DNA of 63,662 nucleotides, filler included, from Stramenopiles sp. TOSAG23-3 (lineage: Eukaryota): the NCBI GenBank assembly GCA_900128585.1. It is 15 parts of 15 records of this genome, joined end to end, with 100 filler letters (N's around TTAATTAATTAA, not from the genome) between each part and the next. Parts side by side here need not be neighbours in the genome. Positions count along the whole stretch, not along the records: positions 34,066 to 38,215 come from LT643933.1; 14 more parts are not named here. One strand, given 5' to 3'. The position numbers and the translations under genes were made by a program. Below the pieces are notes generated by a model. That model had not been told where the DNA came from. It saw only the letters and a list, made by a program, of their open reading frames with translations, and made no database searches. Of this stretch, positions 5,307 to 38,215 are shown one piece after another (the stretch's first letter is position 1; each line of letters begins with the position of its first letter).

Positions 5307-6554
5307 TTACTTTTTGCAAACTCCAGCGGGGACTCTTTCGTCTTTCCCTCGTTTTCCGTCTGTGCCTAGCCAATCCTTCCAGCCTGCCCAGCCTTCTCTA
5401 GCGTACTTTTGATTAGGGTTCGTAGGGAGCTGCGGTGGAAGCCGCTTACTTTTGCTCCGTGCCTTCCACTCTCTCACGGTGCGAATTTCCAGCTTCCTAG
5501 CGCGCGTGCGGGCGGCGTCAAACGCTAAAACGTCTATGCCTAGCCAATCCTTCCAGCCTGCCCAGCCTTCTCTAGCGTACTTTTGATTAGGGTTCGAAGG
5601 GAGCTGCGGTGGAAGCCGCTTACTTTTGCTCCGTGCCCTCCACTCTCTCATGGTGCGAATTTCCAGCTTCCGAGCGCGCGTGCGGGCGGCGTCAAAAGCT
5701 AAAAATTCTGTGCCTAGCCAATCCTTCCAGCTTACCCAGCCTTCTCCAGCGTACTTTTGATTAGGGTTCGAAGGGATCTGCGGTGGACGCTCCGTACTTT
5801 TGCTCCATGTCTGCCACTCTGCCGCTGTGCCAATGTTCTGCTCCCGAGCGTACGTGCGGGCGGCTTCAAACGCTAAAAATTCTGCGCCTACCCGAGCAAG
5901 CGGTATACACTGATAACAACCATCGGCGGCGTCCTGTGGCAACATCGCGAGTTGATCTTTCACGAAGACGCATAACCTGCTGACAATGTCTTGGAAACCG
6001 TCGATGTTGGGTGTAATGTCGAATGACAGCCTCTTTTCGAACTCCGAAAAACCGTGAAGCAGGTACGCTAAAACCTGGGCCTTGGAGCTTGGATCCGCGT
6101 CCCCCCATCTCAAGCCTGGCATGGCACCCCAACGAGGCATAACGTCCGGCAACGACCTTTCCGCGCGAAACGCCTTCACGAGTTCCCTGGAGACAACTGC
6201 GAGCATTCGGTTGTCCCTCGGCGTCACCCAGAACAGGTTCCACTTCTTGTTGAGAAGAGTTCTCATCCCCGCAACGTCGTCACAGCCGAACTCGTTCATC
6301 AGCTCCGCGCCAAACCAACACTCAAGGTTGTGCTCGACTTGGAGATACTCCAAGGTTTCGCCAGTCACGTCGTTGTTCAGGACCACTCCCTGATCTGTGC
6401 GCTCCACAGAGGTATCGGGGAAGCTAGCCCAGCGCCCGGCCATTAACTTGCACTTGTCTTTCGCGGTGCCAAGTACGCCTCGGCAGTGGTAAGTCGATTC
6501 CCTCAGCATTCTAGCGAAGACCGTTGCCGCTGAGCGGCCCTTACGTTTCGTCAT
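5307..6554 (-). CDS. Protein with a putative HNH-like N-terminal domain and three 58-aa phage-integrase-type repeats (INT_rpt-like)
   Basis: Three copies of LAFxAART...W...SKS.R.P.QxPxNPNQKYA.EGW..WKDWLG. Upstream VEH..E...LN..WNL......N spacing. First ATG at 6554. Confidence 0.65.
   Translation of the reverse strand: MTKRKGRSAATVFARMLRESTYHCRGVLGTAKDKCKLMAGRWASFPDTSVERTDQGVVLNNDVTGETLEYLQVEHNLECWFGAELMNEFGCDDVAGMRTLLNKKWNLFWVTPRDNRMLAVVSRELVKAFRAERSLPDVMPRWGAMPGLRWGDADPSSKAQVLAYLLHGFSEFEKRLSFDITPNIDGFQDIVSRLCVFVKDQLAMLPQDAADGCYQCIPLARVGAEFLAFEAARTYAREQNIGTAAEWQTWSKSTERPPQIPSNPNQKYAGEGWVSWKDWLGTEFLAFDAARTRARKLEIRTMREWRARSKSKRLPPQLPSNPNQKYAREGWAGWKDWLGIDVLAFDAARTRARKLEIRTVREWKARSKSKRLPPQLPTNPNQKYAREGWAGWKDWLGTDGKRGKDERVPAGVCKK
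5363..5884. repeat. Coding tandem repeat, 3 x 174 bp
   Basis: TGCCTAGCCAATCCTTCCAGC recurs at 5363, 5537 and 5711. Confidence 0.95.
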
Positions 6555-21126: not shown

Positions 21127-21311
21127 CTTAATTTTTTTATTTTTTACAATGCTATTCCGATGGTATAAATTTATATTTTAAGGCCACTACACGAAAAGAA
21201 GTACTAAATTANNNNNNNNNNNNNNNNNNNNNNNNNNNNNNNNNNNNNNNNNNNNTTAATTAATTAANNNNNNNNNNNNNNNNNNNNNNNNNNNNNNNNN
21301 NNNNNNNNNNN

Positions 21312-21390
21312 TTGTTGTGTTTGTTTTCAAGTGCGATCGTGCGCTGGCGACGTTTCCACGTTGGCTCCCCTTTCAGGATTTTGTTTTTCA
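21312..21390 (+). repeat. Left arm of a 79-bp perfect inverted repeat at the contig termini (right arm 25385-25463)
   Basis: 21312-21390 is the exact reverse complement of 25385-25463. Confidence 0.95.
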
Positions 21391-24961: not shown

Positions 24962-25390
24962 TCAAAACTTATTCGGGACCGATATCACGTGTTCATGGGT
25001 ATGAAGGGTGATGTAACCCCCAGGCGTCGGGATCTTGGTCGGACCGCGTTTGTACGATTTTGTGACGGCCTGCGCAACGTTTTTATGTTTCCGCTTGTGG
25101 CTTATCCCCGTCTTTTCCGAATGTTCCTTGATAACGACTTGGACGTTTTTTAACCGTTGTAAATACTGCACGATGCCGTTAAAATCGGGACGGGCGAAGG
25201 CGTCCATTGCCCAACAGTGCACCATCAGCGTTTGCAGGTCGTGAGGGCACGTTTCGGGAATCTCAGGGCGCATGTTATGCTCCGACACTGCGTGGGTAAT
25301 TGCCTCGTACCTATCTTTTACTTTTCGCAGCTCTTTGACGTCGCTGTAGGGCACTTTCCTAGTCAACAGTTCCCAAAGCATAATTGAAAA
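24962..25390 (-). CDS. C-terminal fragment of a TKL-family protein kinase, 5' end replaced by an inverted copy of 21312-21390
   Basis: FSIMLWELLTRKVPY, RPEIPETCP, CWAMDAFARPDF (kinase subdomains IX-XI). Confidence 0.8.
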   Translation of the reverse strand, partial: FSIMLWELLTRKVPYSDVKELRKVKDRYEAITHAVSEHNMRPEIPETCPHDLQTLMVHCWAMDAFARPDFNGIVQYLQRLKNVQVVIKEHSEKTGISHKRKHKNVAQAVTKSYKRGPTKIPTPGGYITLHTHEHVISVPNKF

Positions 25391-25573
25391 ACAAAATCCT
25401 GAAAGGGGAGCCAACGTGGAAACGTCGCCAGCGCACGATCGCACTTGAAAACAAACACAACAANNNNNNNNNNNNNNNNNNNNNNNNNNNNNNNNNNNNN
25501 NNNNNNNTTAATTAATTAANNNNNNNNNNNNNNNNNNNNNNNNNNNNNNNNNNNNNNNNNNNNCCCCCCCCCG

Positions 25574-34065: not shown

Positions 34066-34345
34066 ATCACAAACATCACAAACATCACAAACATCACAAA
34101 CATCACATCAGGATTTTTTTTAATGACACTACTGGTGTCATAAATTGAACTATATTCCTGCATTCTTCCTGCATGACACCTTAGGTGTCATCAAACATCA
34201 CAAACATCACAAACATCACAAACATCACAAACATTACAAACAAACTAACCCTAACCCTAACATTACATTTTTTATGACACTGCTGGTGTCTTAAATTGAA
34301 CTATATTCCTGCATTCTTCCTGCATGACACCTTAGGTGTCATCCC
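34066..34345. repeat. Composite repeat: (AAACATCAC)n, a 151-bp duplication carrying four ATGACAC-N5-GTGTCAT-type palindromes, and (CCCTAA)-type repeats at ~34246-34261
   Basis: Palindromes at 34123, 34173, 34274 and 34324; ctaaccctaaccctaac. Confidence 0.9.
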
Positions 34346-34404
34346 AATCCTATATAAAAAAAGTACAATAAACGTATACTTTTATGTACATTATTATAAA
34401 ATAT

Positions 34405-35118
34405 TTATATTCTCCCAATTTGACGGTTTTTAGATCTGGTCCGGGACGAACGCCGAACCCACTCATCTTTTTTCGTCGTTCGTTTGTCATCAACGTCGAA
34501 ACTTAAACTTTTTGTGCAGGCGAAGCAAAGCCCTTTATCGGTTAACGCACGGTCAATTTTCGTTTCCATCCATGTTTCTCGGTATTCCTTGGAGAGATTT
34601 TTTACCGTTTTAACCCAAGAACGTGGAGTTTTCAAGGTTTTACACAATTTACACATTTCCTTTGCCGTCTTCGCCTTCCCCTTCGCCGCCTTCACCTTCG
34701 CCGCCACTTTCGCCGCCGCCTTCGCCTTCGCCGTCTTCGGCTTTGCCGTCTTCGGCTTCGGCGTCTTCGCCTTCGCCGTCGTGGCCTTCTTCTTTGAGTT
34801 CTTTCCGCTATTCGATCCCTCGCCACACCGGTGTGTTCTGCACTGTTTTCTATATGAAAGAAAAGGTTAGTTATCATGTTTTAGAAAAAGAAAAGAAATA
34901 CTTACCAGAAATACTTACCCGCACATGGTGCAAAGGGATGCCGTCATCACCTGGCACCCCTTTTTCCCACAGTGAGATTTCACTGCCTTCCCTTCATAGT
35001 ACATGGCAAAAATCATACCTTGGCATGGAAGCTCTTTTGGTATCAACAGGGAGGCGTGAACCTTCTTCCCCTCCACCGAAACATATAAATCTTTGTTGAT
35101 TTTATAATTTCGATTCAT
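34405..35118 (-). CDS. Two-exon Cys/His zinc-finger plus Lys/Ala-rich (histone-H1-like) protein; exons 35118-34919 and 34849-34405
   Basis: A 69-nt intron (34918-34850) with GTAAGT donor, CTAAC branch point, pyrimidine tract and TAG acceptor joins two ORFs in frame: HCGKKGC..CTMCGKQCRTHRC...KAKTPKPKTAK...CKLC...CFAC. Confidence 0.75.
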
Positions 35119-36018
35119 TTTGGATTCCTCAATTTTGTAACTTCTTTAAATTTCTTTCATGTTCAATTTGTATATGTATTTGTATTCATACTAGTAAAGT
35201 AACACGTTTCTTTGTGTAAATTAGACGTACATGTAATAAAACTATAATAAATAAATAATTGTAATATTTATACAATAATTAAAATAGTCTGAGTAGCGCG
35301 GCGAGAAGCGAGGCAAGTAGCGTGTACGCGTACTATTTATTTTTAATTATAATAGTTGCTCAATGGTATTGCGTGTAATATAAAAGCGTAATAGTTGGAA
35401 TACTATATATATATACGATAGTGCGGAGAGCTTCTTTTTTTGTTTTTGTTTTGCCCTGCTATGACGCTGCAGCTACTATTTTTTAAAATTTGCTGGGGAT
35501 ACTAACGGTAGCACTACCAGCACAAAAATTCAAAAAAACATATATATAAATTATAACGACAAAATGTATACTATGGCAATGTATTCTTTCAATTCGATTA
35601 AATGTATTTCTCGTGGAGTGCTCTCGCGTTACAGGTTGCGCTGTAACATTTACATCCACACACCATTATATGTTTGGGAGTTATATTTTTCAGAGTCGGT
35701 TGGTGTAGTGTCGTACATCGATCTAGTACGTGTACACTATCACAGGTGTCATTGGCTTTCAATTCGCCTGCTCTGTCATTGTACTGTGGTACAAATTCTC
35801 TTCCCCTCGACTCTTCTCTACGTCCATGCTATTCCTTGTCTCTATTCTATTTCCCTGTTATTGCATTTTATTGAATATACTGATGACACTACAGGTGTCA
35901 TTACACGCGTGTATATATACATAACTGATGACACTACAGGTGTCATTACACGCATGTGTGTGTATATATATATATAAGAACTGAGTCGGTATACACACGA
36001 AAAGTTATAAACGTCAGG

Positions 36019-38215
36019 CTAAAAGATAATATTATCAATACTTATAGAAAAAAGACTGCAAAACTCACCTAAACACATCCCAATGGGTTCAAATATTCCA
36101 TTCCTCAACATTTCGATTTTGTGATTTACAAGCACCCCTTTGATACAAACTACTGAAATTGCACTATTAACATCTACCATTCCTGCCCCAGCTTGATCCA
36201 ATATAGATAATTTGTGCAAAATTCCTGGCTGCTCCTGTACTATTTTCACTCCGTAAAATTCTCTGCAAATTTGGACATAAAAATGTTCACCAATAAACAG
36301 CATGGAAACAATGTCAGTGAGTGCAAGGTCGGCATCCTCCTGCGACCTGTAATTGACGCATTGATACTTCTTTTCTTTCTTGTCACCTCTTGGTTCACAT
36401 GGAATATAATTTGCAGCATAGAATCGCTTTAAAATATTCAATGGCCTCTTCTTGCCCCATTCTGTATTTGACATTTGGTGTTTTAAGTTTTGAATGAATG
36501 CTTCACCATGAAAATCATCAACAGCCATATCCCCCAGCTCTTCGGATAAATTAAGAAGGCAATGTAAAGCAGGTTTCGTTTCAAACCAACATCTGTTATT
36601 AGTGCCACCATTGGTGTCACCATTCATGGCTTGTACACGGCTGCTTCTTCTGAGGCTGCTTACACCAGCACTGGTTGTGCTACCAGGGGTGTCACGTTTT
36701 CGTTTATGAAGAACATCTTGTTTTGGGAATACTTTTTCATATAACACAATGAACAATTTAACAATGGAGTTTAACAACACAGGCCGCTTGTTGACCATTG
36801 AGCTCCAAATCGAGGCAAAAAGAAAAAATATCAAACGTTCTGCTTGTTCCAGACCATCACACAAAAACATCACCTTCGATATACCCTTCAGATGGCAGCC
36901 TTGCATCTTCCGGTACCCATTTTTCTGTATTGCAATTTCAACACAATTTACCATTTTTACTTTTAATTGTGCCAATCTGTTAACAAACCCAAAAACGGTT
37001 CTATAATACTTTGCTTGGTTGTTCCTTTTTTTCATCTCTAAAGCCAAAAAAATTCCATCCTTGAATACATTGAAAAATAACGTATGGTTGAACCCTGCTA
37101 TCGCCATGCTAGGTTTCAGAACCATGTTCTTACCTTTTGTGATTGCTTCAATAGATGTTTTTGAAAATCCATACCCCCCCAAAAACTTTTTTACCATAGA
37201 AGTCTGCTGTTGTTGTACCCTTCTGCCATTCAGTGTTTGTATTTCTTGTAGACGGTCATGTGCCTTTTTTTGCACGGTATCAAACAATGTATCAGTAAAA
37301 CGTTCTCCATGTCGCTCTACTAAAGTACCGAAAATGTCTTCTGCATACCAAACAACTTTTTCATAATTGAAATCGTAGCAGTCTTTGCACGTGACACCAT
37401 TGGTAGCACAAACTGTATTGTCACATAGGTTGTTAAACCTTCTCTTGGTACAAGTCATGCACGTCAGCAGTTTCTTAAAATGAACGGCTTTTGTGTTTAT
37501 AATCCACCCTGGTCTTTTTGTCAGGTTGCTAAAGGGAGAACGCGTGTCTTTCAACCCCAATAGCTTTGAATATGCTGGTTTGTCCAATATACACCTTTTC
37601 AAGGTAAACAATTTTTTAAAATCCGAAATTAGATCCTGCATTTTCTGATATCCATTTTGGTGTGCGAGACACACTGGGTACCACCTTGAGTAATCCACTC
37701 TTTTTCCAATGACAAACACCACAAAAAGTTGAAGTAAATTATGATTCTGGAGCTGGGTGTACGAGCTGAAATCGTCACCCCAGATTCCAATTTCACATTT
37801 CTGTCCAATATAGAGATTCAGCGCCGCAGGTGATACAAATGCTGCCCCATCCTCCCACCCTATGTTTGGTGTTGGAAGGTGTTCTGGAATTTTGTTATAG
37901 AACGTGTACCTTATAAACGCGTCATCTTCTGGCAGTTTGTCCATGCGCCCAATGTTGAAGATTTCTAAAGCTGTCAGTATTTCCGTTTTTGACCACCGGT
38001 GGCTGCATTTTGCCATCCATATACCAAGCAGACCATCAATGAAAATTTCGTCATTTTTTAATTGTTTTTGGATCAGAATCCACTTGATTATTTTTTTCAA
38101 AACCAATATTCTGTTGCTTTTAACACAACTGCCAACAGTACCTGCTGGTGAAAATGAACATTCTTCTAGTGACACCCCTGGTGGCATAGTACCTGCTGGT
38201 GAAAATGAACATTCT
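36019..38215 (-). CDS. Putative DDE transposase (CMC/Plavaka-like), 5' partial
   Basis: Ordered motifs IWGDDFS, YPVCLA, LDKPA, CxxC pairs, HTLFFNV, LHCLLNL and GEAFIQ. The ORF is open to the contig edge through a 51-bp repeat. Confidence 0.6.

Follow-up and report, generated by a model that had tools for sequence, protein, structure and literature searches.

Contig C4047 of the genome of Stramenopiles sp. TOSAG23-3 (G000:C4047, LT643933.1) is studied here from end to end. It is 4,150 bp long and occupies positions 34066-38215 of the window, which is the whole stretch of DNA analysed, 63,662 nucleotides in length and composed of 15 contigs joined with 14 N-spacers. On the whole, with a probability of about one half and with the mechanism proposed below included, this contig is the core of a cut-and-paste DNA transposon from an unnamed and very divergent lineage whose enzyme is CMCT-like. 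The likeliest reading of its long open reading frame (ORF), probable but unproven from the sequence, is a DDE transposase of CMCT type (EnSpm/Plavaka/Transib), and a small gene of the same orientation accompanies it. The notable additions here are the altered zinc motifs of the long protein and a dyad that occurs all along the element.

The product of the long ORF is named P0001 in the following. An earlier note, made on this DNA from the sequence alone, had claimed an ORF of more than 720 amino acids (aa), and a stop-free frame of 731 codons is indeed found on the minus strand (Table 1); shuffling the bases of the contig 500 times gives no frame longer than 203 aa. The motifs it had read there, WGDDF, LDKPA, two CxxC, HTLF, LLNL and GEAF, are all present near the places it gave, with CMTC starting at 37461, CKDC at 37389, NHTLF at 37089, HCLLNL at 36564 and HGEAF at 36510 on the minus strand. 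D147, D211, H551 and E571 follow in this order and are kept in relatives of 73-76% identity, and D147, D211 and E571 are, by motif likeness alone, the candidate catalytic residues. The G+C content at third codon positions (GC3) of the long ORF is 0.38, versus 0.50-0.69 in nine of the ten host ORFs of the window and 0.42 in the tenth. In addition, pieces are found at other loci of the genome, namely on C6591, C5748 and C5673 and in L047/L048. Among them, a 257-bp piece with 96% identity in L047 and L048 has 9 silent and 3 replacement changes in 86 codons, and the L047 piece differs from the long ORF by a proportion of 0.165 at silent sites (pS) and 0.015 at replacement sites (pN). Judging from such changes, the long protein is under purifying selection.

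As for the family, the only tool to give a signal for P0001 is a feature search of the ESM Atlas, with a recognition value of 2513 (threshold 2300). Its top clusters are unnamed, with 667-752 aa and a score of 0.94, and the only named families among the 30 matches listed are Plavaka (0.92, 38% of members), DUF1258 (0.92, 51%) and Transposase_21 (0.91, 41% and 15%); by the tool's own figure, a first match of 0.9 is reached by shuffled proteins in 4-10 of 100 cases. The named matches indicate distant kinship at best. Actually, the sole relatives of P0001 that are found are fragments of 63-282 aa. Searching 1.84 billion representatives with phmmer gives seven matches, all fragments of 63-152 aa, and the weakest of them, P0008, looks spurious beyond its short matched stretch and is kept out of every alignment. 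A word-index search finds no relative among 4427 candidates at near length and six among 1100 at shorter length, and the profile A6 at E<=10 returns 7 of 4251, all of them known fragments. No relative is detected in viral contigs, in GTDB genomes or in a first metagenome scan, a second scan yields 2 loci out of 85 candidate stretches, and Rfam gives 0 matches. Transposase_21 (PF02992) is found neither by hmmscan of P0001 nor by a genome-wide family search, the control of the latter being silent as well. The Plavaka family PF18759 is likewise absent from P0001 and from the genome, and the Plavaka score of 0.92 in the Atlas, with 151 shared features, is a lead only. The family is not found described in the literature searched, which, here and for the two literature negatives below, is that outside most subscription journals and Repbase Reports.

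Regarding the RNase H/DDE fold foreseen in the earlier note, the models made with AlphaFold2 are of low confidence. The near-whole P0001 as a single sequence has a predicted local distance difference test score (pLDDT) of 32.7, and residues 121-250 with two sequences have 39.9, showing strand-strand-strand-helix with D147 ending the first strand. With the low-confidence 121-250 model, Foldseek gives nothing at E<=0.001 and VIA gives a best Z of 4.5; the RNase H-type transposases stand at Z 3.0-3.6 (P-element 3.6, ISCth4 3.3, Tn5 and Hermes 3.0), level with unrelated folds. RAG1 and Transib chains are not among the 50 rows listed by either fold search, which for a model of pLDDT 40 excludes nothing.

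The motif layout is compared with that of CMCT enzymes below. A generic CMCT layout pattern matches 0 of 20,000 shuffles and one of the 18 long frames of the window, namely the P0001 frame, and it gives weak support, being a post hoc pattern drawn up after the sequence had been seen. The site where H(3-4)H is expected reads H-C-L-L-N in both P0001 and P0002; as a relative at 73% identity likewise has Asn in place of this His, the change does not reflect decay of the present copy. The CxxC of CMCT enzymes usually stands about 18-21 residues after the D, and that position reads S-N-L-T in P0001 and S-N-L-M in P0004. The ZnC2 and ZnH2 domains of RAG1 jointly hold one fold-stabilising zinc ion, according to PMC7204232. 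Because the two motifs share one zinc in RAG1, both halves of that site look altered together here, in the relatives too. A CMCT enzyme without H(3-4)H is not found described in the literature searched. A divergent transposase of CMCT type stays the best reading, by its Atlas neighbours and by the candidate D, D and E kept in relatives, and one motif that defines CMCT enzymes, H(3-4)H, is absent. There is a fair probability that P0001 works like a CMCT transposase, and it is not filed as a member.

The strongest link among the long ORF, the small gene and a 275-codon ORF of another contig, C6771, is a dyad, TGACAC-N5-GTGTCA. Allowing at most 2 mismatches, it occurs 10 times in the 63.7-kb window, always on C4047, with an expectation of 1.49 and 0 of 100 shuffles reaching this number. 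Over the whole genome (28 Mb) there are nine exact sites, five on C4047, two on C6771 and two elsewhere, and C6771 has four sites with up to 2 mismatches. The search put no condition on the two bases flanking the half-sites, and these turn out as pyrimidine and purine in 14 of 14 sites, extending the dyad to TGACACY-N3-RGTGTCA. Half of the sites (7/14) are coding, four in the long ORF and three in the C6771 ORF. The four sites in the long ORF are reached by 7 of 3000 synonymous-codon shuffles and by 0 of 3000 codon-order shuffles; the three in the C6771 ORF by 29 of 3000 synonymous shuffles and never by codon-order shuffles. Dyad sites inside a CMCT ORF are not found described in the literature searched.

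Table 1. Features of contig C4047, in positions of the window
Feature	Position	Strand	Basis or remark
Two arrays of the 9-mer ATCACAAAC, common with an inverted-repeat end family elsewhere in the genome; reading inward	34066..34242	+	
Duplicated 76-bp unit downstream of the small gene, with four dyad sites (34124, 34174, 34275, 34325)	34124..34341	.	
Small gene, exon 2: Lys/Ala-rich linker and CxxC...CxxC domain (~34510-34659)	34405..34849	-	domain common with a KH-domain gene, C4002
Predicted 69-nt GT-AG intron: GTAAGT donor, CTAAC branch site, AG acceptor	34850..34918	-	sequence prediction
Small gene, exon 1, ATG at 35118; Cys/His cluster running on across the predicted splice	34919..35118	-	library searches give no significant family
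Direct repeat of 45 bp between the small gene and the long ORF, bearing two dyad sites (35884, 35929)	35879..35968	.	
Long ORF (P0001), 731 codons running off the contig end; candidate DDE transposase of CMCT type	36019..38214	-	frame search, Atlas, GC3
H551-x3-N555 where H(3-4)H is expected, then E571, candidate catalytic Glu	36502..36564	-	same H-x3-N and E in P0002
Four dyad sites within the long ORF (36603, 36678, 37392, 38170)	36603..38186	.	
Two CxxC pairs, C252/C255 and C276/C279, 41 and 65 residues past D211	37378..37461	-	no well-aligned relative covers them
LDKPA; D211, candidate second catalytic Asp	37573..37587	-	kept in P0004
WGDDF; D147, candidate first catalytic Asp, end of a predicted strand	37768..37782	-	kept in P0003, P0004, P0010 and a P0009 stretch
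Tandem repeat of 51 bp, in frame, assembled for 1.5 units and with one dyad site; inverted versus P0009 and C6591	38137..38215	.	repeat comparison

The product of the small gene has 214 aa if spliced and 67 aa unspliced. For poly(A) run X15, the one RNA run aligned, the contigs listed span 34468-34791 and 34805-35122 (the latter with 1 difference), a weak hint that the gene is transcribed. The CxxC...CxxC domain has one further occurrence in the genome, in the KH-domain gene on C4002, and its pN/pS of 0.11/0.43 over 48 codons shows that the domain is under selection. On C4002 (L018, 2410-3774) a frame of 455 codons joins this domain with three KH domains and is possibly a chimera by capture, in either direction. 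Library searches of the small gene find no family. A ZAD- or Chapa-like nature of the second domain is unsupported, the Atlas search of that domain giving 0.85 at best and no common family. From its Cys/His clusters and the dyad sites, the small protein may bind DNA.

The 5' part of the long ORF is missing on C4047 and is probably to be sought on C6771. P0009 runs in one frame through a Cys-ribbon peptide, followed by three repeats of 17 residues and by residues 27-158 of P0001. The same Cys-ribbon peptide also ends C6771 (minus strand), past a plausible ATG at about 152, and is present on C6591 with the repeat. C6771 is the likely upstream neighbour of C4047, and with its start the complete long protein would have about 820 aa. 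The 51-bp repeat block at the joint is stop-free in one frame on each strand, so that its inversion need not break the gene, and the inverted block may either exist in the genome or be a chimera of amplification; among the contigs listed, a single one crosses the joint, and it comes from the possible source sample and reaches 30 bases beyond the joint. The earlier note called the family possibly intact, which is unproven, as the 5' end is missing and the repeat block there is inverted with respect to a homologue. P0003 and P0009 were also considered as internal-deletion derivatives, and this was rejected because the DNA past the junction is unrelated and matches a patchwork locus, C6548.

Several observations on C6771 (L009) itself may be added. 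Its 275-codon ORF (663-1487) is an orphan that bears three dyad sites and for which no family is found; its middle is acidic and of low complexity, its C-terminal part has a Cys/His cluster, and pieces of it are present on C5748 and C5673 at 68-75% protein identity. Upstream of the inferred start of the long gene, at 243-330, a 70-bp scrap is 90% identical to a RING-type gene of C4923 (L050, 2061-2130), a gene-dense and virus-like contig; two large viral contigs carry relatives of this RING-type gene at 33% identity.

Flanking repeats are present at both ends of C4047, as had been noted earlier. Their reading as a pair of terminal inverted repeats (TIRs) was rejected, since the two repeats are unrelated to each other; they lie at contig breakpoints, where the assembly stopped. 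The variant 9-mer array at the left end of C4047 is mirrored at C6771:403-429, and both arrays read inward and bracket the two-gene core. Copies of the 9-mer family end in CATCCAGGTCCCCATAG at seven contigs, besides a degenerate copy on C2350, and six of the eight inverted-repeat ends are followed by TA, with unrelated flanks beyond. The homology among the copies stops on the ATAG/TA side, which speaks for a real terminus there; the other reading, CATCA...TGATG, does not close on its left side. From TA onward, C3448 matches 52 bp (94%) of the flank of the C6771 end, with other DNA before it, and, with one side checkable, it resembles an empty site for that end. The depth of the 9-mer is about 6,700 in run X3 versus about 10 for the gene, which is not a copy number and suggests long collapsed arrays that would explain the contig breaks. 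These data are consistent either with one composite three-gene element whose ends are nested and whose length is 6.2 kb or more, or with C6771:387-1919 as a separate TA-flanked unit. The two genes claimed in the earlier note do stand on C4047, and the element would be a three-gene one if C6771 belongs to it. Two loci, L051 (C3218) and L046 (C380), have units of about 75-85 bp with the same inverted-repeat end and a left side that matches weakly, and are possible miniature derivatives. Adjoining the second 9-mer array, at 34245-34260 on the minus strand, there are nearly three TTAGGG units, possibly a telomere-like repair patch or a mark of subtelomeric position.

Several results weigh against a CMCT-like transposon. 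P0001 is without a match in Pfam, NCBIfam, PHROGs or PDB sequences, and of 256 features its named Atlas matches have 149-165 in common with it, fewer than the 170 that true members of a family typically share. No H-x3-H or H-x4-H is present anywhere in its 731 residues. Motif I of Transposase_21, as published in PMC1636069, is matched at 5 of 9 positions, a value reached by 3602 of 5000 shuffles, and box A at 3 of 6, away from H377 and reached by 4020 of 5000. No TIR pair or target site duplication (TSD) is seen to bound C4047, nor is any insertion of the full element with both flanks seen, and the candidate ends CTAT...ATAG are unlike the CA...TG usual for CMCT. By tblastn the assembly has only one full-length copy of P0001, besides the partial pieces at other loci, and a short-read assembly can collapse copies. 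The tblastn search shows P0001 to be similar to no other locus of the genome, so that its family looks like a separate one. Among the 20 variant sites listed inside the ORF for run X6, 16 are classified, 8 as silent and 8 as replacement. The X15 contig at 34805-35122 carries the intron unspliced and there is no splice joint among the contigs listed, so that, from the small spliced gene of the earlier note, the gene and its orientation are retained and the splicing is a prediction. Finally, P0009 is chimeric at its C-terminus, where the DNA past the junction belongs to C6548; being chimeric at that end, in a patchwork-bearing genome, its N-terminal join could be accidental as well. The scraps on C6548 include what we take to be helicase-like and Harbinger-like ones.

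If C4047 is a transposon core nevertheless, the long protein would have a core of RNase H type, whose residues D147, D211 and E571 would bind metal and carry out both the cutting of the element ends and their joining into new DNA. Its zinc site would be remodelled, with Asn for the second His and both CxxC pairs further downstream than usual, and its gene would start on C6771 with the Cys-ribbon peptide. The 214-aa zinc-finger protein, or the transposase, would bind TGACACY-N3-RGTGTCA as a dimer, the half-sites starting 11 bp apart, which is one helical turn. Such binding may help to pair the ends, and the sites inside the ORFs may lower transcription of the element itself, in the way TnpA acts on En/Spm; it is from the analogy with TnpA on the subterminal repeats of En/Spm that we infer a dimeric binder pairing the ends and repressing the element. 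The TA-flanked inverted repeats containing the 9-mer are probably the ends of the element, which, with a third gene on C6771, would then measure 6.2 kb or more.

It is rather unlikely that the long ORF is a CMCT-like transposase and that the small gene, the 9-mer and TA-ended repeats and the C6771 gene are separate mobile pieces in a transposon-rich patch, with C6771:387-1919 as an independent 1.5-kb TA-flanked element. This would agree with the TA outside both imperfect inverted ends of C6771, with the patchwork loci of 50-700-bp scraps in the genome and its near relatives, with the presence of the small gene's C-terminal domain in the KH-domain gene, and with the scrap of a virus-like RING gene just upstream of the inferred start. 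However, in 28 Mb the rare dyad is nearly confined to the long ORF, the two flanks of the small gene and the gene of C6771, and inward 9-mer arrays of one variant type are mirrored around the two-gene core. A domesticated or immobilised transposase, i.e. a single-copy gene with a host role or an inactive relic, in which the lost zinc ligands would mark a loss of cutting activity, is improbable. The single full-length tblastn match, the missing H(3-4)H, the inverted 5' repeat block and the independent X4 and X6 run contigs matching parts without differences are in its favour; yet all three acidic residues are kept, the H-to-N change is common to a relative at 73% identity, GC3 is unlike that of host genes, the 96%-identity pieces with mostly silent changes imply sister copies, and copies may be merged when short reads are assembled into 7,088 contigs. 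Equally improbable is a chance motif order in an orphan protein that is no DDE transposase, e.g. a virus-derived gene or one from another mobile element: sequence and fold searches give no proof, the published CACTA motifs are at chance level and shuffled proteins can reach 0.9 in the Atlas, but the Atlas matches listed include three CMCT-clade families and no other named one, the post hoc CMCT layout is in none of the shuffles and none of the 17 other long window frames, and no relative is found in viral or prokaryote collections.

The genome assembly used here is a short-read one of 28.4 Mb. Overall, 20 public runs from 11 studies are listed for the C4047 stretch, and 4 of the 20 were aligned to the contig; the listed runs are marine metagenomes except for three from the possible source and one that bears no label. 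Among the contigs listed, those of X4 and X6 match parts of the long ORF and the intergenic region with 0-2 differences, and coverage gaps of X15 over the long ORF are not counted as silence. At 37867-38051, run X6 has a variant piece with 12 differences and a depth of 38, versus about 3-4 over most of the ORF, which may be a multi-copy scrap. Patchwork loci with 50-700-bp scraps of several genes are L047, L048, L055 (C6548), L026 (C6591), L025 (C5748) and L027 (C5673), and L047 and C6548 have common blocks at 95-99% identity in different combinations. Synteny with the window neighbours was rejected because the neighbours are separate contigs; the nearby ORFs encode ordinary eukaryotic proteins (dynein, APG6, BK channel) and have no positional link to C4047. 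Elsewhere in the window, three tandem 174-bp units (5357-5878) lie within a 484-codon minus-strand frame without a Pfam match at E<=0.0001, and one contig between spacers has the same 79 bp inverted at both ends (21212-21390 and 25385-25563), as C4002 has likewise, probably an effect of assembly overlap.

As a doubtful but wider proposal, the locus may represent a new CMCT-related superfamily of marine protists, with an active transposase whose otherwise universal ZnC2/ZnH2 site is lost or rebuilt; its ends would be CTAT...ATAG flanked by TA duplications, its 9-mer arrays would be inverted and nested, and a dyad operator over the whole body, coding sequence included, would be read by a small zinc-finger protein as a repressor-like self-control set in the codons. 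If this were true, the clade that gave rise to RAG1 would gain a branch without a motif listed for all its members, a natural test of whether transposition needs the zinc site, and the placement of the dyad inside reading frames would be an unusual self-regulation. The dyad is a concrete and testable candidate binding site for a transposon accessory protein. As it stands, what we have is an orphan transposase-like family.

The known systems can be compared as follows. According to PMC12730594, the CMCT clade consists of EnSpm/CACTA, Mirage, Chapaev, Transib, Plavaka, ESTA as well as Lanisha, together with RAG1, and has H(3-4)H before E listed for all members, 5'-CA..TG-3' termini in most and a TSD of 2-5 bp. 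P0001 is like this clade in the order of its candidate residues, D...D...CxxC...H...H...E, in its size of about 730-820 aa and in its Atlas neighbours Plavaka, DUF1258 and Transposase_21; it is unlike it in H-x3-N for H(3-4)H, in a CxxC 41 residues past the second D, in having no sequence match to members, and in that CA...TG is not found. In RAG1/ProtoRAG and Transib (PMC7204232) there would be the same CMCT-clade enzyme, if the reading of P0001 holds, whereas here the zinc site looks remodelled, the genes are co-oriented and not convergent, and the partner is not a kelch protein. The ESTA elements are EnSpm-like elements of fungi with TA duplications (PMC12730594); a CMCT-type enzyme with TA target duplication would be shared with them if the TA-flanked ends belong to the element, and one ESTA consensus given there starts with CAC, unlike the CTAT of the candidate ends. 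The termini of PlavakaB, again from that source, are 5'-CATCA..TGATG-3' with a 2-3-bp TSD. Plavaka (PF18759) differs from our locus in that no PF18759 match exists and the favoured terminus is on the ATAG/TA side; it is nevertheless the best-ranked named Atlas cluster (0.92), and the inward 9-mer arrays around the core start with CATCA and end with TGATG as in PlavakaB, possibly by coincidence. As to En/Spm, PMC2613891 describes TnpA as a protein that binds the subterminal repeats, that transposition requires and that is able to block RNA polymerase. Unlike in En/Spm, the second gene here is short (214 aa) and separate rather than a product of alternative splicing, the motif forms an almost perfect dyad with half of its sites in ORFs, motif I and box A are at chance, and the D-D distance in P0001 is 64, not about 80. 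Like En/Spm with TnpD and TnpA, the locus combines a candidate transposase with a small second protein, and short motifs are reiterated near its presumed end as candidate binding sites.

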